Part shown: positions 1 to 56,696 of the stretch, one piece after another | How the letters are laid out: every line of letters starts with the position of its first letter | How positions within the stretch are numbered: position 1 is the stretch's first letter | Source of the DNA: an uncultured Arcobacteraceae bacterium | GTDB taxonomy: Bacteria; Campylobacterota; Campylobacteria; Campylobacterales; Arcobacteraceae | DNA length: 64,000 nt | Direction: 5' to 3' | NCBI GenBank assembly: GCA_964022095.1 | Contig: CAXHZO010000012.1 | Coordinates: 1 to 64,000, forward strand | The notes under the pieces: model-generated | The model's database searches: none | The model's input: the letters and a program-made list of their open reading frames with translations, nothing else | Told to the model about the DNA's origin: nothing | Position numbers and translations under genes: made by a program

Positions 1-112
1 GGGAAAAGATTATCAAGAACTTTATGTCCTATAAAGTGTTGACATTCTAAGTTCTTACTTAAAAAGGAATAATAGGAAGTTCATATGAGCTAAATTATTT
101 ATTATATTTTAA

Positions 113-946
113 TTAATGTAGTTTAACTCTCTTCAAATATTCACTTATTATTGGTATATAATCTTTTCTACAAATCAAGAATGTCTTTAACTCATTTGGA
201 AGCTTTGTAAGGATTAAATCATTTGAATAATCATATTTATCAATAATTCTTTTTGATAGATATGCTTTCCCCATTCCATTTTTTACACAACCAAGCATTA
301 CTTCATAGTTTTCAATAAAAATTGTTTTAAAATTTTCATTACCTCTATTTTTTTCATATTCAACTAAAAACTTATAATGAGTGCTATCTTTTTTGTATCC
401 AAATAAACAATTATCATATTCTTGTTTTTTTGGTTCTACCATATACAAATCATCATTAAAACTATTTAAAATCATTAAATCTTTATGACTAGGAGCACCT
501 GTAAGAAATGCAATATCAAGTTTATAGTCCAATATTTTTTCTAATATTTGAGGATTAGCATCTGCATAGAGTTCTAATTGCATATTTGGATATTTTTTAT
601 TTAATTTATTTATAAATGGTAATAATCTTAATGCAACATTTGCTTGACCAGAGCCAATACGAAGTATTTCTTGATGAGTTATATTTTGCATTTTATATTG
701 TGCTATTTCAACTTTTTTTATAATCTCAACAGCCATAGGATAGAGTTTTTCTCCCTCTTTTGTCAAAATAACACCAGATGGCACTCTATGAAAAAGGAGG
801 TATCCTAAACTCTTTTCTAATTGCTTAATTCTATTAGTTGCATTTGATTGGGTAAAGTTTAAATCAACTGCTGCTAAAGAGATACTTTTTTTATTTGCAA
901 CTGCTACAAAAACTTTTAACAGTGATGTTTCCATATATCTATCCAT
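113..946 (-). CDS. LysR-family transcriptional regulator
   Basis: N-terminal LysR HTH (LKVFVAVANKKSISLAAVDLNFTQSNATNRIKQLEKSLG) plus substrate-binding domain; divergent from a transporter. Confidence 0.95.
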   Translation of the reverse strand: MDRYMETSLLKVFVAVANKKSISLAAVDLNFTQSNATNRIKQLEKSLGYLLFHRVPSGVILTKEGEKLYPMAVEIIKKVEIAQYKMQNITHQEILRIGSGQANVALRLLPFINKLNKKYPNMQLELYADANPQILEKILDYKLDIAFLTGAPSHKDLMILNSFNDDLYMVEPKKQEYDNCLFGYKKDSTHYKFLVEYEKNRGNENFKTIFIENYEVMLGCVKNGMGKAYLSKRIIDKYDYSNDLILTKLPNELKTFLICRKDYIPIISEYLKRVKLH

Positions 947-1020: not shown

Positions 1021-1899
1021 ATGTTGATTGATTTATTATTTACTAAACTAATGCCAATAGTTATACTTATTGTTATTGGATTTTATTGGAAGAAAAAAGA
1101 ACTACCATTTGATAAAGATATGATTAGTTCACTTCTTATGAATCTTGGAACTCCAGCTCTTTTAATAGCATCAATTAACAACAAGGATTTAACAGTAGAT
1201 AATATGCTAACAATTCTTATTTATGGTACATCTTTAATTATTGTATGTACTGTACTGACAACAGTTTATTTAAAAATTGAAGGCAAAGAAGTAAGACCTT
1301 TTTTACAAAGTTTTATTTTCCCAAATACAGGAGGATTAGGTATTCCAATTGTTTATGTATTACTTGGTGAAACTGCCTTTGTATATGCTATTACATTTTC
1401 AATTTTAATCAATATTTACCACTTTACTATTGGCTTATGGTTAGCAAATAATTCACTAAATATTAAAAAAGCACTTCAAACACCAGTATTATATGCTCTT
1501 GTTGCAGCACTTTTATTTAAAGGTACTAACACTGAAGTACCATCTGTATTAGAAGATGTTTGTAAAATGCTTGGTGGAATAGTTATTCCACTAATGCTTA
1601 TCGCATTTGGTTCTTCCCTTGTTGGTATAAAAATTGGTGAGAATCTAAAAGCAATTAGAATGGGAATAGCAAGGGTAATAATTGGTTTTTTAGTAGTTTA
1701 TATGGCATATATCCTTGGTGATTTTGAGCATATGATTATTGCAACTTTACTAATTCAATACTCAATGCCAATTGCAACTACGAGTTATCTTTTTGCATTT
1801 AAATTTAATGGTCCTGACAAAGAAATAGCCGTTATGACTGCGTCAAGTACAGTTACCATACTATTTTTACTGCCTGTGATTATTTATCTAGTAAAATAA
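1021..1899 (+). CDS. AEC (auxin efflux carrier) family transporter
   Basis: Highly hydrophobic; FPNTGGLGIP and SMPIA motifs typical of the AEC/malate permease family. Confidence 0.9.
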   Translation: MLIDLLFTKLMPIVILIVIGFYWKKKELPFDKDMISSLLMNLGTPALLIASINNKDLTVDNMLTILIYGTSLIIVCTVLTTVYLKIEGKEVRPFLQSFIFPNTGGLGIPIVYVLLGETAFVYAITFSILINIYHFTIGLWLANNSLNIKKALQTPVLYALVAALLFKGTNTEVPSVLEDVCKMLGGIVIPLMLIAFGSSLVGIKIGENLKAIRMGIARVIIGFLVVYMAYILGDFEHMIIATLLIQYSMPIATTSYLFAFKFNGPDKEIAVMTASSTVTILFLLPVIIYLVK

Positions 1900-1912
1900 G
1901 TTATGAACAAAT

Positions 1913-2012
1913 TCCACAACCTGTAATATTTGGCACAAAATTGACTAAGTAAGATTAACTATGCTAAAACTCCAGGACTATCAGTTGCTGATACAAAACT
2001 CTAAACAGTTTC
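1913..2012 (+). mobile_element. Right end of an IS256-type element (terminal IR plus conserved subterminal region); left end lies outside the window
   Basis: Reverse complement matches 51791-51890 at 80/100 positions with no gaps; ends ...GATACAAAACTCTAAACAGTTTC. Confidence 0.85.
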
Positions 2013-2182
2013 ATTGATTGTGTACATAAAACTAGAATTTAATCTAATATATTCATCAAGTGGTAATTTTTACTAGCGATGTGTAATTAAAATTTTATTA
2101 TAATAAAAATCTAAGGAAGTTTTGTCTTTCTAGAAGTTCCGTCAAAAGAACTATATCTGAGATATTATATATAGTTTAAAAT

Positions 2183-2723: not shown

Positions 2724-2859
2724 ATTTAAATCCTTTTTATAATGATGTATATGAGAATAGATGAACTATATAAGTTGGATGATAAACTTGAGTTAGACTT
2801 AAGAAAAAAGAAACTTAGATTATCATTCTTTAAATAAAATAAAGATGGAAGGATTAAAA

Positions 2860-3096
2860 TTGACGTTATTCGAACTCGATCAAATATTAGAAGATAAATA
2901 TAAACATTGTGCTTGTTTAAATGAATCAACTGTAGCAAAAATTATTGGTGTTTCTCCAAGCACTTTGGGAAACTATAGGAATCAAGCTACTGGACCAAAA
3001 TGGTTTTCTGTAGGAAAAGGGAAAAGACCACGCATTATGTATAGTAAGACTTCAATTCTTGAGTTTATCAACGATAATGAAGTAAAAACATTGTAG
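2860..3096 (+). CDS. AlpA/excisionase-like HTH protein
   Basis: LNESTVAKIIGVSPSTLGNYRNQATGPKW...RIMYSKTSILEFI is an AlpA/HTH_17-type pattern; in-frame TTG at 2860 follows an AAGGA RBS (ORF track starts at 2845). Confidence 0.8.
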   Translation: MTLFELDQILEDKYKHCACLNESTVAKIIGVSPSTLGNYRNQATGPKWFSVGKGKRPRIMYSKTSILEFINDNEVKTL

Positions 3097-3097
3097 T

Positions 3098-3135
3098 CCC
3101 ACTTTTAAGTAGTTTTGGCGAACGTTAAAAGTGGG
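3098..3135 (+). terminator. Stem-loop between the alpA-like and rep genes (terminator/attenuator candidate)
   Basis: CCCACTTTTAA...TTAAAAGTGGG perfect 11-bp stem; 16-nt loop GTAGTTTTGGCGAACG; only a short T run follows. Confidence 0.5.
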
Positions 3136-3210
3136 TTTAACACACTAAGAAAATAGGTGATATGAATATTATCATATCTTTCATATATGAATATTGAAAA
3201 TAGGAAAAAT

Positions 3211-3909
3211 ATGGCAAAGAAAAAAGATGCATATTACTTTTCTCATGATTCTAATGCAAAAGATGATTTTAAGTGTATGTTATTGATAGAAGAACTAGGA
3301 CTAGAAGGGTACGGGATATTTTGGGTTCTAGTTGAAACTTTACGAGAGCAAGATAATTATAAATATCCTATCAAATTACTATCAGTTTTGGCTAGAAAAT
3401 ATAATACAACTGTTGCAAAAATGGAAGTAGTAGTAAAAAATTATAATTTGTTCAAAATAGAGGATGATATTTTCTTCTTTTCTGAAAGTTTGAATCATCG
3501 TATGGAGATTATGAACAAGGCAAAAGAACAGAGAACAATTGCCGGAAAAATAAGTGCTGCAAAAAGAAAAAAGAAACAAGAAGAGCAGTTAAAACAACTT
3601 GAAATTCACTTGAGTCAAAGTGACTCAAGTGAACGATCGTTGAACGATTGCTCAACGAGTGTTCAACAAATGAAAGAAAATAAAATAAAAGAAAAAGAAA
3701 AGAAAGAAAAAATAAAAAAAGATATTGAAATTTTTTCGCAACTTCAAAAACAAAATTTAACAGCACAGGAAATTGCAAAAATTGAAATAGATAAATTAGG
3801 TTTGAGTGAATTCTCAAAAAACTACTTAAAAACTAAAACATTAAGTGAAGTAATAAATTTAACTATAGATCATCAATCATATTTGAATTTAGTCTTAGTT
3901 AACTCATAA
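3211..3909 (+). CDS. Phage-type replication initiator-like protein (DUF4373/Lin1244-like N-terminal domain)
   Basis: YYFSHDSNAKDD...GLEGYGIFWVLVETL...FFSESLNHRM pattern; ATG 3211 follows an AGGA RBS; contains an internal iteron-like array. Confidence 0.75.
   Translation: MAKKKDAYYFSHDSNAKDDFKCMLLIEELGLEGYGIFWVLVETLREQDNYKYPIKLLSVLARKYNTTVAKMEVVVKNYNLFKIEDDIFFFSESLNHRMEIMNKAKEQRTIAGKISAAKRKKKQEEQLKQLEIHLSQSDSSERSLNDCSTSVQQMKENKIKEKEKKEKIKKDIEIFSQLQKQNLTAQEIAKIEIDKLGLSEFSKNYLKTKTLSEVINLTIDHQSYLNLVLVNS
3605..3720. repeat. Putative replication origin inside the rep gene: 13-bp perfect IR, four 11-bp tandem repeats and an A-tract
   Basis: TTCACTTGAGTCA-AAG-TGACTCAAGTGAA (3605-3633); TGAACGATCGT/TGAACGATTGC/TCAACGAGTGT/TCAACAAATGA (3630-3673); then an almost purely A/G stretch. 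Confidence 0.6.
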
Positions 3910-3918
3910 AGGAAAAAA

Positions 3919-4350
3919 ATGAAAGGTATAAAATTTAGATACTCAACAAAAATTGTTAAAAAAGAAAGAAATCTTAGATTTTATAAATCAGATCAATCTC
4001 TTTTCAATCTTATTTTTGAAGATCAAAAAATCAAGTTGTATGCAAATGCAAATGAAGAGTTTTTAGATCTTCATTCAATCAAAACTAATAGAGTAATTAT
4101 CCCTCATGTAGGTTCTTTTAAATATTTTCAAAATAAATTATATGTTTTTGAAATTTTACTTTTAAGAAAAAATCAAACTCCAAAAATAAAAAATGAATTG
4201 AATAATTTGAAAAAAGAATTATCAAATGCTTTTAAAATCAATTTGAATAATAAAATAGCTCTTTACAGGTTGATAATTAAATTTACAAATTTTACAACAT
4301 TTGATCAAATAGATTTTTATTTAGAAAATGATGAAAGGATAGCAGCATGA
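3919..4350 (+). CDS. Hypothetical protein of the mobile element
   Basis: 143-aa basic ORF with AAGGA RBS; ATGA overlap with trbJ. Confidence 0.7.
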   Translation: MKGIKFRYSTKIVKKERNLRFYKSDQSLFNLIFEDQKIKLYANANEEFLDLHSIKTNRVIIPHVGSFKYFQNKLYVFEILLLRKNQTPKIKNELNNLKKELSNAFKINLNNKIALYRLIIKFTNFTTFDQIDFYLENDERIAA

Positions 4351-5141
4351 AGAAATTATTAGTATCAATAACAACAGCAGCTACTTTAGCAATAAACAGT
4401 TATGCTGGTGCTGCAGCTGGTGGAGCTACAGAAATTACACAAATTTTGAATAATGCTCAATTAATGGGGATTTATTCAGAAGAGGTTATGCAATATAAAA
4501 CAATGATTGATCAATTGACTACTCAAATGAATCAATTGCAACAAGATATTATGTCTGTACAGATGATGACACAAAATTTACAAAATCTTAGTAATTTTAA
4601 TTGGCAAGATTTCGCAATGAGTGTATCAGGTTTACAAAATGTTATGAATGCTGCAAATGGAATATCATACGCAATGTCAAACTATGACAATATGTTTAAT
4701 AATCAATTCAAAGGTTATAACAATTGGTATTCAATTGCAAATAATAATTCATTAACTCCAGGGCAAAAAGTAAATAGCTTTTCACAACAGTATCAAACTA
4801 TAAATCAAACTACAAGAGATACAGTTAAAGGGACTTTAGACTCATTAAATTTACAAATGAATGATTTTCAAAATGAAGCAGCAACAATTAACACTCTTAA
4901 AAACAATTCAGCTGGAGCAGCTGGGAACAAAGCAGTTATTCAAGCTGCTAACGATATCGCTCTTTTTCAAGTTGATCAATTAAGAAAAATGAGATTAACA
5001 ATGATGAATCAGATTAATATGACTTCTCAATTTATGGCTGCAGAGAATGAAAGAAGAGAAATAGGGCAAAGTATTTTAGATAGCAGTAAAAGTATTAATA
5101 AACCTACTAGAACAGATAACAATTACAATTGGGGGTTCTGA
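4347..5141 (+). CDS. trbJ: P-type conjugative transfer protein TrbJ (VirB5-like)
   Basis: Signal peptide, GATEITQILNN motif, Gln/Asn-rich coiled coil, GNKAVIQAANDIA motif. Confidence 0.9.
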   Translation: MKKLLVSITTAATLAINSYAGAAAGGATEITQILNNAQLMGIYSEEVMQYKTMIDQLTTQMNQLQQDIMSVQMMTQNLQNLSNFNWQDFAMSVSGLQNVMNAANGISYAMSNYDNMFNNQFKGYNNWYSIANNNSLTPGQKVNSFSQQYQTINQTTRDTVKGTLDSLNLQMNDFQNEAATINTLKNNSAGAAGNKAVIQAANDIALFQVDQLRKMRLTMMNQINMTSQFMAAENERREIGQSILDSSKSINKPTRTDNNYNWGF

Positions 5142-5143
5142 TT

Positions 5144-5401
5144 ATGAGAAAATTAGTTTTATTTACTTTTGCAGTTCTTCTTTTTCTGTCTGGTTGTAAT
5201 GATAAAAATAAAGCACCAAGAACAGAAGAATTCTTTTCTAAGAATATCGCATTAGCAAAAGAATTAAATAAAGAATGTTTAAAAAATGGTATATCAAAAA
5301 ATGATTTTGAAAGGTCAGAGTGTATAAATGCTTCAAATGCAGTTATGAAAAATATAAAAAAACCAAATCGCAACGATAACAATTATAAAATGGGGTTTTA
5401 A
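5144..5401 (+). CDS. Entry-exclusion lipoprotein (TrbK/EexN-like)
   Basis: Lipobox LSGC, two further Cys (EC...ECINA), located between trbJ and trbL. Confidence 0.8.
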   Translation: MRKLVLFTFAVLLFLSGCNDKNKAPRTEEFFSKNIALAKELNKECLKNGISKNDFERSECINASNAVMKNIKKPNRNDNNYKMGF

Positions 5402-5402
5402 T

Positions 5403-6492
5403 ATGAAAAAGATATTTTTATTATTTGGAGTTTTTTTATTTATCACTCCTTTGTTTGCAGATATTGATACAAATAATCAAGCTAAAGATTTGTTTTTTTT
5501 ATTTAAAAATTCTATTGATTTTTGGCTTCCTAAAATATTAGAAGTTGCTACTTGGTTATTTTGGGCTTTTGTAACGATTGATTGGGTCTTAACTTTTGGA
5601 TATATGGCTTTAAAAGGTACGGATTTCGCAGAGATATTTGGAGAGCTTATAAGAAAAGTGATTCTTATTGGATTTTTTATGATGTTTTTTACATTTACAA
5701 GTTGGTTAAACACAATTCCTCAATCTTTTTCACAGTTAGCAGATATAGCAAATGGTACATCTATTTCAATTACAGTAGATTCCATTCTAGAGGAAGCAGT
5801 TAATATTTTCTGGGCTTTTGTACAAGGTTTTTCTATTACTAATTTAGTAAACTCTTTAGCTTTATTTTTTTGTGCTTTGATATCTGCAGTTCTTTTAGCA
5901 TATATTGGTGGTAGATTATTTGTAGTTCAATTATCTTTGTATATTAAAATAACTCTTGCACCTTTGATATTTTCATTAGCTGGATTAACTCAAACTAGAC
6001 AGATGGCTGTTAACCCATTCTTTTCGATAATTAAAGGTGGTTTTGAATTATTTTTATTGAAGCTATTTTTAGGATTGTCTTTAACGATATTTATACAATT
6101 TTCAAATGAAGTTCAACCAGATTTACAAAGTGCAATTATGGTTGTATTGGTCCCAATTTTAATTGCAATGTTAATAACAAATATCCCATCTATAGTTGAA
6201 AGCTTATTAAGTGGTAGTTTAAGCTAGTTCTAATATGAGACCAAGTGGAACTATGGCTGCTGCTGGATTAATGGGAGGAGCTGCTGGGGCAACTTTAGGT
6301 TTTGTAAGTGGAGCTGCTGGAGGAGCAATTGGAGCAAAAAGTGCAATTAATGCAGCGAAAGATTTATCTGCAGCTGGAGAGGGTACAACTTTTAAGAATT
6401 TAAGAAAAGCAGCAAGTGCAGATACGGTTAATTCTATTACAGGAGCTAATAAATATGCAGCTGGTAATAAAGGGGTAAGAATGGCTAACAGT
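5403..6492 (+). pseudogene. trbL: TrbL/VirB6-like protein, frameshifted near 6221
   Basis: Multi-TM VirB6-like ORF stops at 6227; removing one A at 6221-6222 joins it in frame to the Gly/Ala-rich TrbL tail of ORF 6235-6852; could also be a sequencing indel. Confidence 0.75.
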
Positions 6493-6852
6493 ATGAATCA
6501 AAAATCAGATATCTTAAGAGTTAATGAAATTGAAGAAAAAAAACTTGTCTCAAATTCCGATAGTTTTGGATTAAAAATACCAGGATATTTAAGATCATTA
6601 GGTCTTAATTATCCTGTTAAAACTATAGTTGATGAAAAGGCAGTTGCAAATCTTCTAAAAGTAAATGCAGATATGGGAAGACTTGGAGGACTATTTAAAT
6701 TATGGTTATCAGATAATAGATTTGATAAGTTTGATTTTAGCTCTACTAGATCATACAAAGATATTGATAATCTTGTAGATGAAATAGAAAGAACTCAAAA
6801 AGTTTTAAAAGATCAAGCATTGAATATAATGCAAAAGAATTATGATAGTTAA
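6493..6852 (+). CDS. traJ: TraJ/MobC-type relaxosome accessory protein, in frame with the TrbL tail with no stop between them
   Basis: GYLRSLGLNYPVKTIVD...LLKVNADMGRLGGLFKLWL is the IncP TraJ signature; overlaps the relaxase start; true start uncertain. Confidence 0.8.
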   Translation: MNQKSDILRVNEIEEKKLVSNSDSFGLKIPGYLRSLGLNYPVKTIVDEKAVANLLKVNADMGRLGGLFKLWLSDNRFDKFDFSSTRSYKDIDNLVDEIERTQKVLKDQALNIMQKNYDS

Positions 6853-8428
6853 AAAAGTACCAGCAAAAAAAGCTACAAAATCAAGCTATAAAGCACTTGC
6901 TAATTACATACTTGATAAGTCAAATGATATGGAAAAAGTAGAGTCATATTGGTTTACAAATTGTTCTTATACTGAAATAGATCATAATGTACTTGAAATT
7001 GAAAATATGCAGCAGCTTAACCAAAGAGCAAAGCAAGATAAAACATATCATTTGATTGTTTTATTCCAGGAAGATGAAAATCCAAATGATGAAATAATAC
7101 AAAATATAGAAAATGAACTTTTAAAATCAATTGGTCTTGAAGATTGTCAAAGACTAAGTGTAATTCATAATAACACTAATCATAAACATATTCATATTGC
7201 TGTAAATTTAGTAGATCCATTGACACTAAAAATGAAAAATCTATCTTTTGATAAATTAACTTTACAAAGAAAAGCTGCAGAACTTGAAAAGAAACATAAT
7301 CTAAAAATTACAAATCATTTAAAAACAACTAATGAACCAAAAGAAAAAAAGATTGATGATAAAACTATTCATACTGGAGTTATAAATTTTAAAGATTGGG
7401 TTAAAGAAACTGCATTAGAAGATATTAAGACAGTTATTGCAGATGATAAGAGTACCTGGAAAGATTTTTATACAGTATTCGCTAAGTATGATTTAGAATT
7501 AAGAGATAGAGCAAATGGATATGTAATATCAAGTAGATCTAGAAAACTATTTATAAAAGCTTCTGATGTACATAGAGAGCTTTCAAAAGCAAAACTTGAC
7601 AAAAGGTATGGATTTAGAGATAAAAGCGTTTTAAAAGCATTTATAGCTCAAATTGAGCCCAAATATAAATTTGAATTAAAACCAAACCTTGGTTCTAATC
7701 TTTGGGATGAGTATAGACAAGTAGAAAAACAAAAAGAGTTAGAGAAAATAAAACTACTAGATCAAGAAAAATTTCAAAGAGAAGAAACTAAAGCAAAAGT
7801 GCTTAAAAAATGGCAACTTTATAGAGAAAAAACGATGAAAGATAGAACTATTTCTAGAACAGAAAAACAAAAGATTTATAAAATGATTAGTATTTCTAGG
7901 AAAAATGAATTAAACAATATACAATCAAAATTTAAAGATCAAAGAATGGATATCTTTTCACAACATAGAAAACTTTCATATAAAGATTTTTTGATGAATA
8001 AATCTTTAGCTGGAGATGAAAAAGCCCTGGAATTATTAAGAAAAAAAGAAACTAAAACAAAGCAGTCCGGAAATACTATAGGTAAAGAGACTGAGAGTAA
8101 TCATAAGGTATTTAATTCTTTTGAAAAAAGAGTAAGTAAGGATGGTGTAGTTAGTTATATTTTGGATAATGAAAGTAGGGTACTAGACAAAGGAGATCAT
8201 TTTAAAATCAATATTAAAAATAATAGATCTCAAGAAATATTAACTGTTTTAAAAATGGCAATTGCAAAATATGGTAATGAGTTAGATATTACAGGAACAG
8301 AAGATTTTAAAAGAGAAGTTTTAAAAGCTGCAAAAGAGCATAATCTAAATATTAAATTTAAAGATGAAAAAATGCAGTTGATTAGAGATATCCAAAGTAG
8401 AAAAATAGGAAATGGATACTCTTATTAG
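6842..8428 (+). CDS. traI: MOBP-family relaxase (TraI-like) with C-terminal LPD7-like domain
   Basis: Motif I Tyr (LANYI), motif II YHLIV, motif III HNNTNHKHIH; C-terminal KYGNELDITGTEDFKREV. Confidence 0.9.
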   Translation: MIVKKVPAKKATKSSYKALANYILDKSNDMEKVESYWFTNCSYTEIDHNVLEIENMQQLNQRAKQDKTYHLIVLFQEDENPNDEIIQNIENELLKSIGLEDCQRLSVIHNNTNHKHIHIAVNLVDPLTLKMKNLSFDKLTLQRKAAELEKKHNLKITNHLKTTNEPKEKKIDDKTIHTGVINFKDWVKETALEDIKTVIADDKSTWKDFYTVFAKYDLELRDRANGYVISSRSRKLFIKASDVHRELSKAKLDKRYGFRDKSVLKAFIAQIEPKYKFELKPNLGSNLWDEYRQVEKQKELEKIKLLDQEKFQREETKAKVLKKWQLYREKTMKDRTISRTEKQKIYKMISISRKNELNNIQSKFKDQRMDIFSQHRKLSYKDFLMNKSLAGDEKALELLRKKETKTKQSGNTIGKETESNHKVFNSFEKRVSKDGVVSYILDNESRVLDKGDHFKINIKNNRSQEILTVLKMAIAKYGNELDITGTEDFKREVLKAAKEHNLNIKFKDEKMQLIRDIQSRKIGNGYSY

Positions 8429-8460
8429 AAAGGTAAGAATTGATTTCTTACCTTTTCTTA
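8429..8460 (+). terminator. Intrinsic terminator after traI
   Basis: AAAGGTAAGAA-TTGAT-TTCTTACCTTT perfect 11-bp stem directly after the stop, T-rich tail. Confidence 0.8.
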
Positions 8461-8638
8461 TCACTTAAGTGTTATTAGTTGGTAGCTAATATCATTAATA
8501 TTCGTCCTATCGAATATGAACATAGTCCATGGATGTATTTTAGTGTATATTTAATAAAAATTAATAATTCTTAAAACTAAATTGTAATTGATAATATAAT
8601 AGCAATTAATTAAAAAAAGAATATATACTTATTATTTA

Positions 8639-8777
8639 TTTAGTATATATGCTAAATTATAAGCTATAAATTATAATAAACTCATTGTTTTAATAATATT
8701 TAGTATATAAACTAAATATAAAGTTAATATTAATTTTATTGCATATATAATTAGTCATATTTAACTTATATACTAAA
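8639..8777. promoter_or_regulatory. Three palindromic operators TTTAG-N8-CTAAA upstream of the hipB-like gene
   Basis: 8639-8656 TTTAG-TATATATG-CTAAA; 8699-8716 TTTAG-TATATAAA-CTAAA; 8760-8777 TTTAA-CTTATATA-CTAAA; spaced 60 and 61 bp. Confidence 0.75.
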
Positions 8778-8800
8778 TAAGAGTGTAAAAAAGAGAAAAA

Positions 8801-9013
8801 ATGGAATTAACAGTTAATAGAATAGGTAAAATTATAAAGAATAGAAGAAAAGAGTTAAATCTTGAATTAAAAGATTTACAAGATTATTCTGGTGTAAATT
8901 ATGTATCAATTTCTGATATTGAAAATGGTAAATCAAATCCCACAATTAAAACTTTAGAAAAACTTTTAGATGTATTAGGAATGCAAATAAATATTGATGT
9001 GGTAAGTAAATAA
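8801..9013 (+). CDS. HipB-like XRE HTH antitoxin/regulator
   Basis: IKNRRKELNL...SISDIENGKSNPTIKTLEKLL HTH_3 pattern; first gene of the hip operon. Confidence 0.9.
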   Translation: MELTVNRIGKIIKNRRKELNLELKDLQDYSGVNYVSISDIENGKSNPTIKTLEKLLDVLGMQINIDVVSK

Positions 9014-9339
9014 TGCAAAAAGCTAAAGTTTATAGAAATAATATACTTGCTGGTTATCTTATAAAATATAGTGATAGTGAATATAGCTTTATTTATGATA
9101 GTGAGTATTTGAAAATGCCAAATATAAAACCTATTAGTTTGACCTTACCATTACAAGAAAATGAATTTAAATCAAATCATCTATTTCCATTTTTTTATAA
9201 TTTATTAGCTGAAGGAAAATTAAAAGATATTCAGTGTCGTGAACTTAGAATAGATAAAAGTGATGATTTTTCTAGATTAATTCTTACAACAAAAGAAAAT
9301 ACAATTGGTTCTATTACAATTGAAAAAGAAGAGATATAA
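9013..9339 (+). CDS. HipA N-terminal-domain protein (HipS-like)
   Basis: AGYL...YSFIYD...PISLTLPL...LFPFFYNLLAEG, the HipA N-terminal coupled-domain pattern. Confidence 0.9.
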   Translation: MQKAKVYRNNILAGYLIKYSDSEYSFIYDSEYLKMPNIKPISLTLPLQENEFKSNHLFPFFYNLLAEGKLKDIQCRELRIDKSDDFSRLILTTKENTIGSITIEKEEI

Positions 9340-9341
9340 AT

Positions 9342-10343
9342 ATGGAAAATAACAGTTGTTTAGGTTGTTTAGCAACTAATAAGAAACTTACTAATAATTA
9401 TTGTTCAAAGTGTATAAAAGAACTATTTGCTGGAACTATACCAAATCCTCTAAATTTTGACAAAGTTGAATTTACTAAAAAAAGAGCTGAATTGTCTTCG
9501 AGAATGTCTATCTCTGGAGTACAAGATAAAATTTCTTTAGCTTTTGAAAAAAAAGATTTAGTTCCAACTGCAACAAATGGAAAATATATACTTAAACCAA
9601 TTACAAGTGGTGAGGGGCATATCAATAATGAAAAAGATACAGCTGCAAATGAACATGTATCAATGCTTATCTCTAAAAATATATTCAATATACCAACAGC
9701 AAACTGTGGATTAATAGAATTTAGTGATAAAGAACTTGCATATATCACTAAAAGATTTGATTATGATGAAGCAGGAATGAAATATGATCAAGAAGATTTT
9801 GCTGGAGTATTAGGAGTATCTCCTTTTACTCATGGAGAAAACTATAAATATGATGCTTGTACTTATGTAGATTGTGCAAGAATGATAAAAAAACATGTTG
9901 CTACAAGTATTGTTTCAATAGAAGATTTCTTTAAAAGAATAGTTTTAAACTATCTAATTTGTAATGGTGATGCTCATCTTAAAAACTTCTCACTATATAG
10001 TAAATCAAATTCAAATGAATATTTTTTAACTCCAAATTATGATTTATTAAATACTAGGTTCCATGTAAATGAAAAATATGGAGATATGGCAATAGAACTA
10101 CTTGATGATTATACATCTACTTATGAAGCATATGGATATTACACATATGATGATTTTAAAACTTTTGCAAAATATATTGATCTACCAGAAGTTAGATTTA
10201 ATAAAATCATGCAGTTTATAGAAGATTCTTTTTCTAAGGTTGAAGAACTGATTAATAAATCATTTTTGAGACCAGATGCAAAAGAGTTTTATATAGAAAA
10301 CTATAAAGACAGAATGAAGAGATTAAGAATTAAAAAATCATAA
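9342..10343 (+). CDS. HipA-family Ser/Thr kinase toxin (HipT-like)
   Basis: Gly-rich loop MSISGVQDK, YITKRFD, NGDAHLKNFS catalytic motif, PNYDLL. Confidence 0.92.
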   Translation: MENNSCLGCLATNKKLTNNYCSKCIKELFAGTIPNPLNFDKVEFTKKRAELSSRMSISGVQDKISLAFEKKDLVPTATNGKYILKPITSGEGHINNEKDTAANEHVSMLISKNIFNIPTANCGLIEFSDKELAYITKRFDYDEAGMKYDQEDFAGVLGVSPFTHGENYKYDACTYVDCARMIKKHVATSIVSIEDFFKRIVLNYLICNGDAHLKNFSLYSKSNSNEYFLTPNYDLLNTRFHVNEKYGDMAIELLDDYTSTYEAYGYYTYDDFKTFAKYIDLPEVRFNKIMQFIEDSFSKVEELINKSFLRPDAKEFYIENYKDRMKRLRIKKS

Positions 10344-10383
10344 AATATCTTCTTCTTTTTTTATTGCTTTTTCAATATTAAAA

Positions 10384-10419
10384 AAATGAGTCATTTCTGA
10401 GACATTTATTAGCTATAAT
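10384..10419 (+). promoter_or_regulatory. sbcD promoter: imperfect palindrome next to a TATAAT -10 box
   Basis: AAATGAGTCA-TTTC-TGAGACATTT (10384-10407; 8/10 arms); TATAAT at 10414-10419. Confidence 0.5.
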
Positions 10420-10449
10420 AAAATAACAATAAATAATATCAGGTTTTAT

Positions 10450-11664
10450 ATGAAGATACTCCATACCTCAGACTGGCACTTAGGTCAAAACTTTATGGGA
10501 AAAAGTAGAGTTGATGAACACTCATCTTTCCTAGATTGGCTTTTAAAAATAATAAAAGAACAAAACATCCAAGTACTTTTAGTAGCAGGAGATATTTTTG
10601 ATACTGGAACACCACCAAACTATGCATTAGAGCTTTACTATAACTTTCTAAAAGAGTTAGCAAACATAAAAACTCTAAAAAACACTATCATAACAGCTGG
10701 AAATCACGACTCAATCTCTACACTAAAAGCACCAAAACAACTACTTGAAGTTTTAAATGTAAATGTCATAACTACAGGAGATGTTGATGAAAACATAATT
10801 ATACCAATAAAGCAAGATGATAAAATCCAAGCTATCGTATGTGCAGTTCCATTTTTAAGAGATAGTGTTATAAGAGAGTCAATCTCTGGACAAACAATAA
10901 GTGATAAAGAAAAAGTAGCAAATAGTGGTATAAAAAACTTCTATGAAAACACATATAAAAAAGCACTTGAACTAAAACCAAGTGAAAACACACCACTAAT
11001 AGCTATGGGACATCTTACAACTGTAGGAAGTAGAACTAGTGAAAGTGAAAGGGATATCTATATAGGAGGTACACTTGATATTGGTGGGGATTATTTAGGC
11101 TCACTATTTGACTATGTGGCTTTAGGGCATCTTCATATCAATCAAACAGTTGGAGCTAATCATGTTCGATACTCAGGCTCTCCAATACCTCTTAGTTTTT
11201 CAGAATGTAAAAACACTCAAAAAGTAAATATCGTAAGTTTTGATAACAATACAGATGAAAAAAATATAGAAGTTCAAGAGTTAGAAATCCCATTAAAAAG
11301 AAAACTTCAAATTATCAAAGGTGATTTGGAAGCTGTAAAAAAAGAGTTAGAAAATATCACAGATAAAAACACATGGATAGAAGTGCAACTAAAAGATGAT
11401 AATCCAATGTTTGCAAACACTGAAATAAGAGAACTAGCTACAAAACTAGAGCTGATACTATTAGCAGTGAAGATAGAAAAAAGTGAAAAACAACTAAGAG
11501 CCAAAGAGCTAAAAGCCATAAGCTTAGATGAACTAAGTATCGATGAAGTTTTTGCAAAAAGAATTGACCTTGAAAACATAGATGATAAAGATTTTGAGCA
11601 AGAACTTATAACAAACTTCAAACAAGTAGTTTCAAAAGTGCAAGATAGTGGAGCTGCACAATGA
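10450..11664 (+). CDS. sbcD: Exonuclease SbcCD subunit D (Mre11-like)
   Basis: HTSDWHLG, AGDIFD, AGNHD, ALGHLH and RYSGSP metallophosphoesterase motifs. Confidence 0.97.
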   Translation: MKILHTSDWHLGQNFMGKSRVDEHSSFLDWLLKIIKEQNIQVLLVAGDIFDTGTPPNYALELYYNFLKELANIKTLKNTIITAGNHDSISTLKAPKQLLEVLNVNVITTGDVDENIIIPIKQDDKIQAIVCAVPFLRDSVIRESISGQTISDKEKVANSGIKNFYENTYKKALELKPSENTPLIAMGHLTTVGSRTSESERDIYIGGTLDIGGDYLGSLFDYVALGHLHINQTVGANHVRYSGSPIPLSFSECKNTQKVNIVSFDNNTDEKNIEVQELEIPLKRKLQIIKGDLEAVKKELENITDKNTWIEVQLKDDNPMFANTEIRELATKLELILLAVKIEKSEKQLRAKELKAISLDELSIDEVFAKRIDLENIDDKDFEQELITNFKQVVSKVQDSGAAQ

Positions 11665-14807: not shown

Positions 14808-14817
14808 AAGGAAATGA

Positions 14818-16746: not shown

Positions 16747-16747
16747 A

Positions 16748-18643: not shown

Positions 18644-18644
18644 T

Positions 18645-18950
18645 ATGAATTTATCTAAATCCTTCTACACAAAAGGCATCCAATGCCCCAAAGCACTTTG
18701 GCTTAAAAAATACAAGCCAAGTGTACTAACTCCACCTGATGAAAAAGCCCAAGCTATATTTGACACAGGAAATGTAGTAGGAAACTTAGCTTGCGAGCTT
18801 TTCCCTGATGGAAAAGAAGTACTATACACTACAAAGTATGATGAAATGATATCAACTACAAAAGAGTGGACAGATGTGGGTGTACCAAATATCTATGAAG
18901 CTACTTTTAGCTATAAGGGTATACTTATCATGGTAGATATTTTAAGATAA
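18645..18950 (+). pseudogene. N-terminal fragment of a DUF2779-type protein
   Basis: LSKSFYTKGIQCPKALWL...IYEATF...MVDIL; stops right after the Asp of the expected nuclease motif, so it looks truncated. Confidence 0.7.
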
Positions 18951-51162: not shown

Positions 51163-51792
51163 ATGTATTTAGAAAAGTTAAAAGATTTAGAATCAGAGTT
51201 TTTATATCAATATCCAGAAGGTTTTAAAGATGAACATTTTTTCCCTACAATGAAAAAATTTAAGCCTGAAAAACTTGAAGAGTTTGCAAAAGAGGCTTTA
51301 AAAAAAGAGAATTTTTCAAATCCAAACTTGATTGTTGAAGGCTTTTTTAAAACAGTTCAAAAATCAGTTATGGTTTCACTGTTTGATAAACTAAAATTAA
51401 AAGATGCCTTAGCTAGTTTAAATTCATATGAAAAAGATATGTTAAGTATCGAAATATATGAACTTTTATATGGAAACCAAAAAGAGGGCTTTGAGGGCTT
51501 AGTTGAGTTTCTAGAACAATATAAATTAGCTAAATGGACTATTGTTAGTATAGTTCCTTATAGTATAAATAGACAGACACAATATTTTATAAAACCAACA
51601 ACAACTAAAAATATAATCAAATACTTGGAGTTAAAAGATGTTGTGTATAAACCAAAACCAACTTATGAGTTTTATAAAAATTACACAGGATATTTAGATG
51701 AGATGAAAAAAGAAGTAAGTGATACTTTAACTTTCGATAATGCAGCATTTACAGCATTTTTTAAAATTGCAATTGAAATGTGTGAGGTTTGA
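51163..51792 (+). CDS. Conserved hypothetical protein; stop codon completed by the inserted element
   Basis: ATG 51163 just after the tautomerase stop; FLYQYPEGF, LAKWT, FIKPTTTK; TGA uses the first bases of the element. Confidence 0.8.
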   Translation: MYLEKLKDLESEFLYQYPEGFKDEHFFPTMKKFKPEKLEEFAKEALKKENFSNPNLIVEGFFKTVQKSVMVSLFDKLKLKDALASLNSYEKDMLSIEIYELLYGNQKEGFEGLVEFLEQYKLAKWTIVSIVPYSINRQTQYFIKPTTTKNIIKYLELKDVVYKPKPTYEFYKNYTGYLDEMKKEVSDTLTFDNAAFTAFFKIAIEMCEV

Positions 51793-52061
51793 GACTGTTC
51801 AGAGTTTTGTGTCAAAGTTTGATAGTCCTAGAGTTTTAGTATAGTTAATCTTATTAATCCTAATTTGTGCCAAAACTTACAGTTTGTTGAACTTTCTATT
51901 TTAACTTAGAATCTTTTAAATTCTGAGTATGAATTTAAATTACCACTCCAAATAAATAATGGCTCTTGGGGTAGACCTTATTCTGAAAATTAGAGTTTTT
52001 TAATTATGGTTCTTGATGTTAAGTGATTCTGCTATAAAATCAAATTTGAAAAAGGAAAAAA

Positions 52062-52478
52062 ATGGAATTACCATCAATAAATTTATTCTCTTTTATTTTT
52101 AATTTAAAAAAAGAAAAACCAAAAAATGGATATTTTTTAGAATTTAATAAAAAAGGATCTGAAAATTCTAGACATCATATATTTAAAGAGAACAAAGTGA
52201 TAGACTCAAGAATAGATTTAAAAAATATTTCTATGGGTGTTCTTTGGGGATACAATGGTGCTGGTCCAAGACAAGCTGCACTAGCAATACTAGCTGATTA
52301 TAAGAATGATGAATTTGCCTTAAAACATTATGAGCAGTTTGCTATTGATGTTATCAATAAATTAAAACATGATAGAAATGATTTTTTGAAATTTACTACT
52401 ATCCAAGATTGGATTGACAATGTTCATTTTACAGCTGATTATGCTGAATTAGAAGATGATAAAAGTGAGCAATGCTAA
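52062..52478 (+). CDS. DUF6166-like protein (cargo)
   Basis: WGYNGAGPRQAALAILAD resembles the WGYxGSGPAQLALA motif; AAGGA RBS. Confidence 0.65.
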   Translation: MELPSINLFSFIFNLKKEKPKNGYFLEFNKKGSENSRHHIFKENKVIDSRIDLKNISMGVLWGYNGAGPRQAALAILADYKNDEFALKHYEQFAIDVINKLKHDRNDFLKFTTIQDWIDNVHFTADYAELEDDKSEQC

Positions 52479-52636
52479 ATAAGTATTGGAAAGAAGGAAT
52501 TCTGGGAAGGGTATTCATATTTAATTACTTAGTCAATTTAGTAACGTGTCCTCGAAATTAAGTGTCTTAAAAATAATTAATCAAATATTTAAATAAATTA
52601 TTATATTATTAAATAAATTATTTCTAGGAAATTTAT

Positions 52637-53392
52637 TTGAAAAATGCAAAAAATAGAATATCAAGAGCAGAAAGAAAATTTATAGAATTAAAAAAATTTA
52701 TATTGAATAATCCCCCTTATATTTATACTTTTGAAGTTGACTTAAATAAAAAAGAATGTTGTACTTATGCAAAAGGTAATGAATCTAATATTGATGAAAT
52801 TAAAATGGAAATTGGAGATTTAATACATCAAATTAGAATTACTTTAGATAATGCATATTGGGATTGTGTTTCACCTTTTGTTAATGAAATTGAACATCGA
52901 AGTATTCAATTTCCAATTGGTAGAAGTAAAAGTGGTTATGAAAATAATCTTAAGAGTAGATTGGCTGCAAAAGTTAGTGATGATTTTTTTAATAAAATGA
53001 AAAGAATAAAAGCATATCCAGATGAAGATGGAAATAAAATTTTATGTTTAATTAATGAACTTGATATAACAGATAAACATAAATTCCCTAATCCAATTAT
53101 TGATTATACCACTGTATCAACTTCTCAATTAAAAGAACAAATCAATAATTTTCCTGAAAATATAAATATTGATAATATGATTATTAGTAATTGCCATAGA
53201 CATATATGTTGGAGTATTAATAATTACCAAATTACTAAAGAATTTATATCCATACCACCTACAACATTTCTATATGAAAAGGAATTAAATATAAATATTG
53301 GAATTAATATTAAAGATGGATTACCATTATTAGAAACTTTACATAAAATGATTAATGAAGTAAAAAACACTATTTCAATATTATCTGAGTAG
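52637..53392 (+). CDS. Hypothetical protein, possibly HEPN-like (cargo)
   Basis: GDLIHQIRITLD...QFPI...LINELDITDKHK pattern; TTG start after AGGA. Confidence 0.6.
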   Translation: MKNAKNRISRAERKFIELKKFILNNPPYIYTFEVDLNKKECCTYAKGNESNIDEIKMEIGDLIHQIRITLDNAYWDCVSPFVNEIEHRSIQFPIGRSKSGYENNLKSRLAAKVSDDFFNKMKRIKAYPDEDGNKILCLINELDITDKHKFPNPIIDYTTVSTSQLKEQINNFPENINIDNMIISNCHRHICWSINNYQITKEFISIPPTTFLYEKELNINIGINIKDGLPLLETLHKMINEVKNTISILSE

Positions 53393-53447
53393 CATACTAG
53401 TATATATATGTTTGAAACAATAAAAAATATATTTAAAAGGAACTAAT

Positions 53448-54317
53448 ATGAAAAGAGGAATTGTAGCGACACCTGGAATTTTACATAAATTACCTCAGGG
53501 TATTCAAATGGAAAGAAGTTTAAATTTTGATGAACTTAAATATTACATATTATATTTTAATAAAGTAGTGATTCCTTCTAATAATGGTTTATATATTGGG
53601 CTACCCAATGAGAAAGAGTTAATCGAATCTAATCTTATTAAAAGACCAAACTATAATGTTTCAGGATTAATAGATTATGCATTATTAACAAAAATACAGA
53701 CTACTGAATTAGAAAGATTACAAAAAATAAATGATAATACTTACTGGAATTTACATCAAATAGGTGGAGACTCAATTATTGCCTCTAATGAAGATCTTGT
53801 AAGAAAAGAAACAATAAAATTTAAGTTATTAAATGTTCTTCCAGTTCCTTCAGAAGATGTGAGTATTGATGAGCTTTCAATATTTAAAGAAAAGAGAAGT
53901 GACGAATTTAATTCACTACATGAAACAATTGATAATCTTTATCTTGATATATTAAAATCTCCGGATCAAGTATTCTCTGAAAGAAAAATAATAATTCAAC
54001 TTCAGAATGATATTGGAAATATTCAAAAGGTTTCATCAGAGAAATGGAAAATCTTTAAAGGATATAGTTTGGATTATGACTTTACAATAGCTACTGAATT
54101 ATCAACTTCAGGATTAATTGCAGGTGGTGGGGCAGGATATGTATTTGATCAAGCTCTTTTTGGTACGACATTTCCAATAGGTACAATTATAGGAGCAGCT
54201 GTTAAGGGTATTGATATTAAAGTATTACCTAGCATGACATTAAAAAAAGAGACTCCAAACCACCAATTATCATATATATCGCATGGAATTAAGAATGGAA
54301 TTATAAAGACTGTTTAA
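53448..54317 (+). CDS. DUF6236-like protein (cargo)
   Basis: ELKYYILYFNKVVIP, LNVLPVPSEDVSIDELSIFKEKRSDE; Gly-rich hydrophobic C-terminal hairpin. Confidence 0.65.
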   Translation: MKRGIVATPGILHKLPQGIQMERSLNFDELKYYILYFNKVVIPSNNGLYIGLPNEKELIESNLIKRPNYNVSGLIDYALLTKIQTTELERLQKINDNTYWNLHQIGGDSIIASNEDLVRKETIKFKLLNVLPVPSEDVSIDELSIFKEKRSDEFNSLHETIDNLYLDILKSPDQVFSERKIIIQLQNDIGNIQKVSSEKWKIFKGYSLDYDFTIATELSTSGLIAGGGAGYVFDQALFGTTFPIGTIIGAAVKGIDIKVLPSMTLKKETPNHQLSYISHGIKNGIIKTV

Positions 54318-54641: not shown

Positions 54642-54730
54642 CAAACACTTATTAGTATTTTATGTTCAATAAAGTGTTCAAAATGCAAAAATCTTAATTC
54701 CCACAAAGCCTTAAGAGTTTTTGAATACTT

Positions 54731-54893: not shown

Positions 54894-55280
54894 CAAATGG
54901 ATAAATTGACTCTAATGGTCTTTGTTTCCATTCTTTGAGTAATGGTATAACCTTATCTGTAAAATCACTTATTGTTGCTTTTGAAAATTTCATACCAAAT
55001 TTTTCAATGTGTTCAGCTATTTGGCTATAACTATTACCTAAAGCATATAAAGATAAAATCTTTTGTTCTATATGATCTGACATATGGGTTTGGTGTTTTT
55101 TAACAATATGAGGTTCGTAAGATCCCCTTCCTGTCTCTTGGAACTTCTAACTCAATTCACCAACACTACTTTTCATAGTTTTTAAAGATTTACCATTCTT
55201 TCTATTTTTATTTATCTCAGAAGTTAGATGAGATTTTAACTCTGCTTCTAATGCAGCTTTAATTCATTCAAGTGCATCTG
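54889..55280 (-). pseudogene. IS256-family transposase, 5' remnant with frameshifts
   Basis: AALEAEL.SHL...NRKNG...VPRDR...EP.IVKKHQ...ILSLYALG.S...I...FTDKV...EWKQRPLESIYP; DDE core missing. Confidence 0.92.
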
Positions 55281-55340
55281 TTCAATCCTTTAGAATAAAT
55301 TATATAAGACTGACACAAAATTTCTAACACTCCCTGAGGT

Positions 55341-56696
55341 TTAGTTTTTACACTCCTTACATACTTTTGCAAACTCTTTTATAGCTTGTATTATTTCATC
55401 TTCTTTAAATCCACCAAATCCCATAGCATATAAATCATCTTTTCTATTATATATTTTTATATTTACTTTTTGAGTTTCTTTTAAAAGTAATTCTTTATTA
55501 ATATTACTATTTAATTTTATAAGGATATTTAAGCCACTTCCTTCTCTTATGATTTCCATTTCATCTTTTAACTCTTTTTTTAAAGACTCTTTCATTAGAT
55601 TGTGTTTTTTTCTATTTAGAGTTCTTACTTTTCTTATATGTTTGATAAAATACTCTTCTTTTAAAAATAGCTCTAATGTTTTTTGTATATCAATAGAAAT
55701 ACCTGAAAATGGATAGTCAAAACACTCTTTGTATTTTGAAATTAAGCTTTTTGGTAATATTAAGTATCCCACTCTTAGAGCTGGAGAAAATGATTTTGAG
55801 ACAGTTCCAAAATATATTACTCTATCATTATTGTTTATTCCTTGAAGGGCAGGAATTGGTTTGTTGTAATAACTTAATTCACTATCATAGTCATCTTCTA
55901 TTATATAGCTATTTGTTTTTTGTGCCCATTGAAGGATTTTTATTCTATTTGCTATTGGTATTGTAACACCAGTTATATATTGATGTGCAGGAGTTAGATA
56001 TATTAGTTTTGATTTGATTTTTTCAAGGTCATTTAAATCTATTCCTTGTTTTGTCATTGAAAGGTACTTTATATCATAAGACATTTGTGTAAATACTTTT
56101 TTTGCAACCCTATAAATATCCCCTTCAATAGCAATACTACTTGTAAAGTCTTTTAATAATAAAGAAACAATAAACATTGCATCTGAAAAACCACTACAAA
56201 GAACTATTTGATCTTCACTACAATTAACTCCCCTTGAAGACCTTAAATATTTTTTTAACTCAATTCTTAATGATTCTAATCCTTGTGTATTTACATATGA
56301 GCCAAAATCAATATCTTCTTTTAATACTTTGTTATAAACTTTATTCCATGCTTTTATAGGAAAAGTATCGCTACTTAGTTTTGCTGGATAAAAATCATAT
56401 TTATATTTTTTAGTACTTGTATTTTTGTTTTGTTCATCAATAGGTTTAGTTAAGTCTTGATATAAATCTTCACTTACATAATAACCTTTTTGAGCAATAC
56501 TATCTATGTACCCTTCTGCATATAGTTGATTATAAGCATTTTGTACAGTATTTTTACTAAGATTATATTCATTTGCTAAAGTTCTAATAGAAGGTAGTTT
56601 TTCTCCAGCTTTTCTTGTGCCATCTTTTATTCTTTCTTTTATTTGTTCATACAATTGAATATAAAGTGGTATGTCAGATTTTATAAATTTATACAT
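55341..56696 (-). CDS. MocR/PdxR-family PLP-dependent regulator (GntR HTH plus aminotransferase domain)
   Basis: PLYIQLY, KLPSIRTLA, YNQLYAEGY, IEDDYDSE, GTVSKS; ATG 56696 preferred over 56738. Confidence 0.95.
   Translation of the reverse strand: MYKFIKSDIPLYIQLYEQIKERIKDGTRKAGEKLPSIRTLANEYNLSKNTVQNAYNQLYAEGYIDSIAQKGYYVSEDLYQDLTKPIDEQNKNTSTKKYKYDFYPAKLSSDTFPIKAWNKVYNKVLKEDIDFGSYVNTQGLESLRIELKKYLRSSRGVNCSEDQIVLCSGFSDAMFIVSLLLKDFTSSIAIEGDIYRVAKKVFTQMSYDIKYLSMTKQGIDLNDLEKIKSKLIYLTPAHQYITGVTIPIANRIKILQWAQKTNSYIIEDDYDSELSYYNKPIPALQGINNNDRVIYFGTVSKSFSPALRVGYLILPKSLISKYKECFDYPFSGISIDIQKTLELFLKEEYFIKHIRKVRTLNRKKHNLMKESLKKELKDEMEIIREGSGLNILIKLNSNINKELLLKETQKVNIKIYNRKDDLYAMGFGGFKEDEIIQAIKEFAKVCKECKN

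Follow-up and report, generated by a model that had tools for sequence, protein, structure and literature searches.

A probable cargo-carrying IS256-family transposon lineage in Arcobacteraceae and other Campylobacterota, traced from two right ends in one 64-kb contig segment

Mobile insertion cassettes (MICs), which are derived from IS231 in the Bacillus cereus group, are non-autonomous elements in which insertion sequence (IS) ends surround passenger genes and the transposase acts in trans, and transposons of the Tn402/Tn21 type carry class 1 integrons. In transporter ISs (tIS) and unit transposons, passenger genes are integral to a moving unit with one transposase and terminal inverted repeats (IRs) (PMC9330008, PMC7986276), and Tn21 is known to carry an integron (PMC9330008). 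A 2014 survey of the IS256 family covered 109 elements and found simple ISs exclusively (PMC3942029). For the family member ISCth4, imperfect terminal IRs are reported whose differences fall in the first 14 bp and whose subterminal part is common to both, as well as a transposase N-terminal domain that binds subterminal bp 14-25; for the family, copy-out/paste-in transposition with AT-rich 8-bp target duplications is reported (PMC7780238). We analysed a window of 64,000 nucleotides (contig C12:1-64000) from the assembly of an uncultured Arcobacteraceae bacterium (G000, 2.57 Mb in total), in which a repeat of 105 nt occurs twice in inverted orientation. Its first copy (1908-2012, minus strand) is very probably the right end of a cargo-carrying IS256-family transposon (element A), and the second copy is the right end of another (element B).

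The repeat arms were compared by MAFFT alignment and by an inverted-repeat search of the window. The reverse complement of 1909-2013 aligns with 51790-51894 over 105 nt without gaps at 80% identity, and the second-longest inverted pair in the window covers 60 nt at 73%. Similarity between copies A and B ends at about 1908-1912 and 51891-51895, respectively. The initial annotation of this DNA, which had reported 80 identities in 100 ungapped positions and a break at about 1912/51891, stands on both counts. It had also proposed to search this genome and its relatives with the repeat; in the 2.57-Mb assembly, copy B was found with an E value of 3.9e-21, the one other significant match was a tip-only copy of 36 nt (C3:147544-147579, 89%, E 9.6e-7), and the remaining 23 of the 26 matches listed had E values of at least 0.5. 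Among 184 genomes from 22 genera of the same bacterial family, the long form of the repeat was present in 55 genomes from 11 genera. The repeat, hereafter called the module, consists of a right inverted repeat (IRR, 36 nt, tip GAGACTGTTCAGAGTTTTGTGTCA) and about 70 nt of subterminal DNA (S).

1977..2012, minus strand: IRR of copy A, 36 nt, tip at 2012 (GAAACTGTTTAGAGTTTTGTATCA...); 28/36 identical to the IRR of copy B, with a tip that is sharp in 39 aligned rows.
1908..1976, minus strand: S of copy A, up to the cargo boundary, with the motif ...TTTTGTGCCAAATATTACAGGTT (GTGGAAT); from the alignment, this inner-end motif is an inverted repeat of the end of the D region described below.
51791..51895, plus strand: module of copy B, comprising IRR (51791-51826) and S, from the alignment to copy A and related copies.

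The tip boundary is sharp in 39 aligned rows from related genomes, falling between a variable base (N) and GAGAC, and the two window IRRs are identical at 28 of 36 positions. The outer 24 nt of the copy B IRR (GAGACTGTTCAGAGTTTTGTGTCA) form an inverted copy of a left inverted repeat (IRL) at 55311-55334 (reverse complement GGGAGTGTTAGAAATTTTGTGTCA) with 18 of 24 positions identical; the mismatches are confined to bp 1-14, with bp 15-24 (TTTTGTGTCA) the same in both ends. A Pfam scan of the 64 open reading frames (ORFs) of the window found Transposase_mut in none of them, and no transposase 3' end adjoins either module copy, in agreement with the first reading of the sequence. At window positions 51896-51950 and at eight other loci (e.g. 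L036, L044, L060, L062), conservation of the right end continues for about 55 nt beyond the module (TATTTTAACTYAGAAT..TTAAATTCTRAGTATGAATT..TTACCTCTCC, with a short hairpin).

The copy B module and the IRL delimit element B, whose parts are as follows.

51783..51790, no strand: target-site duplication, left copy TGAGGTTT, perfect (8/8).
52062..54317, plus strand: cargo, with DUF6166 (52062-52478), a protein of 251 amino acids (aa; 52637-53392) and DUF6236 (53448-54317), by Pfam.
54663..54725, minus strand: D-region remnant, 77% identical over 64 nt to the D region of the sister species genome G001 (row L070 of the D alignment).
54894..55259, minus strand: 5' part of a decayed IS256-family transposase gene (tnp), 81-84% identical to two transposase genes on contig C3.
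55279..55334, minus strand: left end, comprising the IRL (reverse complement GGGAGTGTTAGAAATTTTGTGTCAG..., tip at 55334) and the leader up to the former start codon; IRL versus IRR 18/24.
55335..55342, no strand: target-site duplication, right copy TGAGGTTT, perfect (8/8).

Element B is recognizable as an insertion of 3,544 bp (51791-55334), complete and transposase-dead, because an IRL/IRR pair encloses a decayed tnp and the 8 bp outside both ends are identical (TGAGGTTT, 8/8); the three cargo genes arrived with this insertion. Its insertion point lies precisely between two convergent genes, whose overlapping stop codons it splits. The tnp remnant has internal deletions and no ORF of at least 90 aa, as judged by alignment and stop-to-stop frames. 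The gene content given in the initial annotation is upheld by Pfam for DUF6166 and DUF6236 here and for LysR (113-946) and AEC (1021-1899) in element A; its 'HEPN-like' label is not, having no match in Pfam, NCBIfam or PADLOC. The 251-aa ORF has no family match in any of these three databases, and none of the element B cargo is matched in NCBIfam or PADLOC. The pairing of the module tip with an IS256 left end and target duplications speaks against a different idea, in which a small RNA gene or a 3'-untranslated region (3' UTR)/terminator element, common to two loci, would account for the module. In about 24 of 41 loci (read from the list) the tip indeed lies 0-45 nt past the end of a same-strand ORF, and a subset of copies has a hairpin after the module. 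Such a position is expected from tolerated intergenic insertions, the module folds no better than shuffled sequences, and the 64-kb window has no Rfam match at gathering score; we consider an RNA or terminator element extremely improbable.

In related genomes the same ends occur with transposase genes and with varied cargo, which agrees with the earlier proposal of IS256-derived elements that have a fixed right-end module and different passengers. Judged by these sequence matches, the family is widespread in Campylobacterota: the D region, a conserved stretch after the tnp stop codon, was found in 58 of the 184 genomes, and genomes titled Sulfurimonas and Sulfurovum contain the exact end sequence as well. 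In G001, each module has a tnp 5' part and an IRL 2-14 kb away in the same orientation. Intact transposases of 400 aa in relatives match the NCBIfam model transpos_IS256 (NF033543) with 415.4 bits (cutoff 150) and Pfam Transposase_mut (PF00872) at 7e-108. Each element has a single transposase gene and a single IRL, its right side being the 105-bp module. Elements with both ends are 1,248-14,651 bp long, and those that in addition have an intact tnp measure 2,021-14,651 bp and are all cargo-bearing. Target duplications were scored only in the 14 elements with both ends located; nine are perfect 8-bp duplications (element B of the window, the arsenic resistance (ars) element on C3 of G000, three elements of G001, G057_C31, G157_C2, G114_C12, and L094) and two match at 7 of 8 positions (L099, L104). 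Identical cargo is found at different sites, as the ars element has different target duplications in G000 and G001, and each of five other genomes, one of them titled Sulfurovum, shows a different flank at its right end.

A simpler explanation, raised in the initial annotation as the outcome that would undo its proposal, was that the module is the normal 3' UTR plus IRR of an intact IS256 with random breakpoints among copies. This does not apply, because tnp adjoins the module in none of the copies examined: the distance from stop codon to tip is 762-13,389 nt in the nine elements with a full tnp and IRR, as opposed to 45-64 nt in three simple multi-copy relatives (72-75% aa identity; 8- or 9-bp duplications by eye). 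None of 44 ORFs at the inner flanks of 33 loci is a Transposase_mut protein, and no module comes after the intact tnp of G000. Flanking DNA on either side of the module varies by locus, and the breakpoints among copies are fixed, not random, with D as a fixed left boundary.

The family appears to comprise autonomous forms and many transposase-less, cargo-bearing forms, because elements with intact tnp occur alongside loci that keep an IRL and have no full tnp. Among 20 further D-side loci that were fetched, the IRL is retained in 14 and a full tnp in none; eight have tnp remnants only, and in several the IRL lies about 70-150 nt from D. Three tnp-less loci with both ends measure 1,248, 2,050, and 5,269 bp and have duplications of 8/8, 7/8, and 7/8, respectively. 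G000 has only one intact 400-aa tnp of this lineage (C3:236197-237396), which the module does not adjoin and whose right end was not located in any part of the assembly. This tnp is part of a region (C3:233000-237414, L081) in which it lies at the contig end, overlapping the start of C10 by 55 nt. Genes for catalase, ankyrin, LysE, and SMR proteins are found beside it.

The layout of the family is IRL, tnp (400 aa), a D region of about 155 nt after the stop codon, cargo, and the module (S and IRR). D is conserved directly after the tnp stop in an alignment of 26 copies. RNAalifold on these 26 D regions gave seven pairs without compensatory change, and for this reason no RNA structure is claimed for D despite hairpins seen by eye. 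In 36 of 59 long modules, D and module are paired in convergent geometry on the same contig within 30 kb, at a distance of 762-16,348 nt (median about 3.6 kb). The end of D and the inner end of the module form an imperfect inverted repeat of 24-35 nt that faces the cargo, with ...TTTTGTTCCAAAA..TAGAGGTT on the D side and AACCTGTA..TTTTGGCRCAAA... on the module side. For this slot motif, which had been noticed before it was tested, mean identity is 16.6/24 over 320 pairs, compared with 8.5 ± 2.2 for controls (30,000 random 24-mers ending in KTT, i.e. GTT or TTT), 0.11% of which reach 17. The motif resembles the subterminal IR part TTTTGTGTCA and is retained in Sulfurimonas copies in which the intervening S has diverged, which suggests a role in cis, possibly as an additional binding site for the transposase.

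A more far-reaching reading of the motif pair is that of a dedicated docking site, at which cargo including whole integrons would be loaded or exchanged by a site-specific reaction, either through transposase binding and cleavage at the IR-like internal ends or through an integrase acting at AGGTT boundaries. We hold this to be unlikely; if true, it would represent a new kind of modular capture platform across Campylobacterota. The same IR-like boundaries, with tips toward the cargo, also speak for the module as a miniature inverted-repeat transposable element (MITE) or composite partner, such that an IS (IRL-tnp-D) and a 105-bp MITE have come independently to flank chromosomal DNA, which they move as a composite transposon. 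In line with this, the module itself is an imperfect palindrome (ACTGT..TTTTGTGTCA ... TGYGCCAAAA..ACAGT), and an IRR-like sequence follows the D end in three copies. An 8-bp repeat at the module's own borders was, however, found in 0 of 39 copies exactly and in four with one mismatch (85-nt search range), and all seven D-type copies with an intact tnp have a module downstream. The search of 185,579 species genomes for an empty D-module junction with the exact pattern TTCCAAAWNTWRAGRTT-N{0,30}-AAMCTGTANNWTTTGG had no match, which is weak evidence. A MITE partner is therefore quite unlikely in our judgement. The sole LRR homologue without a module in genus g5 is that of G057 (57% identity), whose context differs, and it therefore says nothing about an empty site.

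The cargo is diverse. It includes ArsR with ArsP; an RND efflux set (MFP, AcrB, OEP) with DUF3313, shared by G001 and G114, members of different genera; LysR, CDF, peroxiredoxin, and cytochrome bd genes with nested IS3, IS1182-like, and IS256 copies and a resolvase gene; PhzF with LysE; HicA with small ORFs; a sensor kinase; GGDEF-EAL proteins; an S24 peptidase; an EF-hand protein; and a 252-aa Transpeptidase-domain protein of the size of class-D beta-lactamases (L092:1455-2213, on contig 282 of G143). The latter is the sole cargo of an element of 2,267 bp (L092) with an intact tnp, for which no target duplication was found. Mobile DNA inside the slots comprises IS3, IS1182-like, and IS701-like elements, an integron, and resolvase genes, the latter as cargo in two elements only; the backbone has no resolvase or res. 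The 14.6-kb element of G001 (L079, G001:2531800-2548200) has a perfect duplication. Besides a 26-nt piece left over from the inner end of a module, it contains one IS1182-like and two IS3-family copies, a resolvase gene, and a second IS256-family transposase gene (47% identical), and thus looks like an element that grew stepwise by nesting.

The integron, a chromosomal one, occupies the slot in two genomes of one genus (L063:1135-4215 in G060 and L061:1139-4850 in G056), with intI (TIGR02249, 407.9 bits, cutoff 265; split into two ORFs in G056), a GyrI-like cassette, a 379-aa cassette, and attC-like sites after the cassettes, the last of which abuts the D end; tnp is deleted in both. The cargo of G033 likewise has an attC-like site at the end beside D. 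The boundary consensus of attC-type sites is GTTRRRY, and GTTGAAC at the inner end of the module fits it. Together with intI ending about 30 nt from the inner module end in G056, G058, and G060 and the attC-like sites that abut D in G056, G060, and G033, this would agree with the module being an att/attC-like recombination site of a tyrosine recombinase or integron, with cargo loaded at its inner end. An integrase beside the module is nevertheless confined to one genus (one of the 44 inner-flank ORFs plus two loci), folding of the module does not significantly exceed that of shuffled sequences on either strand (z -1.46 to +0.65), whole elements have the 8-bp duplications typical of DDE transposition, and no attC-like sites were seen by eye in the element B intergenic DNA that was read; a recombination site is very unlikely on this evidence. 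A Tn7-like end or the att site of an integrative element, considered in view of the tyrosine recombinase by the module in G056 and G060, was dropped because an IS256 left end and target duplications were found.

Element A, of which the window holds the right part, carries different genes next to the module.

1..112, no strand: left edge of the cargo; the contig starts 1-3 nt past the D/cargo boundary, by the match to G001 and the loose end of a sequencing-run contig.
113..946, minus strand: LysR-type regulator, 277 aa, Pfam HTH_1 and LysR_substrate.
1021..1899, plus strand: AEC-type membrane transporter, 292 aa, Pfam Mem_trans 1.8e-21.
2013..2020, no strand: 8 bp outside the tip of copy A, ATTGATTG, a possible half of a target duplication whose partner was not found.

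The LysR protein is 95-96% identical to that encoded beside the D region in the 14.6-kb element of G001. At the DNA level, window positions 4-201 are 94% identical to this element from 5 nt past its D end, which places the contig start 1-3 nt after the D/cargo boundary, and positions 193-880 are 97% identical, resuming past an IS3 insertion present in G001. The left side of copy A was followed in Logan contigs from four marine/seawater runs that contain this stretch, which were compared with the lysR-D-tnp region of G001. A contig of 5,806 nt (depth 83, in two runs that are possible sources) extends from lysR across the D/cargo boundary, and a loose contig end from another run reads ...AAGAGGTTA directly before window base 1. 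In the 5,806-nt contig, 249 unaligned letters replace the 218 nt of D region and stop-proximal tnp end of the reference, followed by 111 nt that match the tnp 3' part with 18 differences and then by unrelated sequence. A 25-mer taken from the loose end of a run contig occurs in neither the window nor the assembly. Because the same lysR stands directly after D in G001 and D-end sequence precedes window base 1 in a run contig, lysR and the AEC gene are best placed in the slot between D and module, as other cargo is. On the module side of lysR, G001 has a CDF gene in place of AEC, with the 26-nt remnant of an inner module end beside it; the two loci thus appear to have one backbone and D-side gene with differing module-side cargo. 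Element A accordingly appears to be a decayed copy of the family, its left part off the contig and its tnp cut to about 60 codons.

Several observations weigh against reading copy A as the end of a transposon of this kind, and against the architecture itself. The initial annotation, whose 8 bp outside the tip of copy A (ATTGATTG, 2013-2020) were confirmed, had predicted a left IR preceded by the same 8 bp. No such end was found: the predicted junction of ATTGATTG with the IRL (GGGAGTGTTAG...), the string 'ATTGATTGGGGAG', is absent from the assembly, the contig start overlaps no other contig in an assembly search, and nothing lies upstream in the assembly because the window begins at the start of C12. 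The run contig leaves tnp after about 60 codons into unrelated DNA with no IRL seen, and element A may be a relic no longer able to move. Target duplications are missing in three of the 14 elements (G001_1806k, G145_C163, G143_C282), and 23 of the 59 long modules have no D partner in the tables, some of them at contig ends; the D search scored four candidates per genome only. Local alignment of whole D with whole module is no better than with shuffles (z 1.3-3.0, except for one of the seven elements at -0.4), which leaves the boundary-anchored motif comparison as the only significant one. In a sister lineage (tnp 88-92% identical), perfect duplications occur with cargo-bearing elements whose right end is the 36-nt IRR alone, D and S being absent; among its members are the ars elements of both G000 and G001, G057_C31, and the ars right end with five flanks. 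As this lineage carries cargo without it, the S of about 70 nt would not be needed for movement. The case for transposition, a circle junction, and transposase binding is made wholly by sequence comparison.

The strongest competitor for copy A is that of a solo relic, in which an orphaned right end happens to lie beside lysR and AEC as ordinary chromosomal neighbours. The missing IRL and duplication partner, the truncated tnp followed by unrelated DNA in the run contig, and the modules without a D partner all fit it. It does not account for the G001 element, itself flanked by a target duplication, in which the same lysR (94-97% DNA identity) directly follows D, nor for the D-end sequence before window base 1 in a run contig, and we regard it as possible though doubtful. 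The cargo-carrying transposon remains the reading that we favour for window positions 1908-2012.

For such a transposon, we infer a transposition route, mobilization in trans, roles of the S and D motifs, and a mode of cargo exchange as follows. The transposase would recognise IRL and IRR and move all DNA between them, generating 8-bp target duplications; from the established chemistry of the family, the unit would be copied out as a circle and then pasted in (PMC7780238, PMC3942029, PMC7986276). Copies that lack tnp and retain ends, D, and cargo could be moved in trans by an intact copy, which is conceivable in G000 because one intact tnp gene is present. Cargo diversity would arise as mobile DNA inserts into the slot, the sole dispensable stretch of the element, and by deletions, and cargo could be reshuffled by homologous exchange between copies through their flanks (tnp-D and module). 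Turnover by insertion into the slot, deletion, and homologous exchange is thus the most likely source of what the initial annotation called cargo swapping, a process that is presumed rather than observed and the weakest step of this account.

Directly outside the tip of copy A, the window contains a mobilisable-looking island (2845-19640) with genes for an HTH_17 protein, TrbL/VirB6, a NikA-like protein, a MobA/VirD2 relaxase, and an ORF6N protein, an SbcD/SbcC-like pair (weak LmuB match), and a split HipA pair (9013-10343). No integrase was seen in Pfam and PADLOC scans of the window. A Gabija defence pair lies at 14818-18643 (GajA, PADLOC 6.7e-214; GajB, 1.1e-176). Further along, a nucleotidyltransferase/substrate-binding pair of the MNT-HEPN type (38247-38938) is followed, in the region up to 43061, by a 1,364-aa protein for which a weak match to NPHP3_N (STAND-like) is the only one and which PADLOC does not recognise.

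The family would make an IS256 lineage a vehicle for genes, in comparison with the simple IS organisation of all 109 elements in the survey (PMC3942029). Its cargo of note includes arsenic resistance, RND efflux, a class-D-type beta-lactamase-like gene, toxin-antitoxin genes, and an integron. Annotators can use IRL, D, and module, which are fixed, as a simple means to delimit islands and trace horizontal cargo transfer in marine and animal-associated Campylobacterota, and the conserved slot boundaries offer a testable handle on the transition from IS to transposon. No title or abstract that describes this element was found in searches of the literature on the IS256 family and on Arcobacter, whose scope lay outside ISfinder, TnCentral, and the main IS reviews. 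Passenger-carrying IS derivatives and unit transposons are known, and the cargo-bearing layout with a fixed slot is unusual for the IS256 family, although it may have been described earlier.

With the IS256 family (IS256, ISCth4) the elements share a Mutator-type DDE transposase by profile (NF033543, PF00872), imperfect IRs that differ in the first 14 bp and have a common subterminal part, and AT-rich 8-bp target duplications, as described for the family (PMC7780238). Ordinary members are 1.2-1.5 kb long and contain the transposase gene alone, whereas here 0.7-13 kb of cargo and the conserved D and S lie between the tnp stop and IRR. As in tIS and unit transposons such as the Tn3 family, passengers stand between the ends and duplications flank whole elements including cargo (PMC9330008, PMC7986276); in contrast to these, the transposase is of another family, no resolvase or res is present in the backbone, and a single fixed slot with an inverted motif at its boundaries contains the cargo. 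The elements differ from composite transposons in having one transposase gene and one IRL rather than two complete IS copies, and the absence of an exact 8-bp border repeat from all 39 modules distinguishes the module from a MITE. Of the 20 D-side loci, the 14 that keep IRL, D, cargo, and module but have no full tnp resemble MICs, from which they differ in the IS family, in the use of the same slot by autonomous and non-autonomous forms, and in the tnp remnants that are usually visible. Finally, the integron of G056 and G060 (intI and attC-like cassettes) inside a transposon slot is reminiscent of the integron carriers of the Tn402/Tn21 type, except that here the backbone is of the IS256 type and the integron is one of many slot contents.

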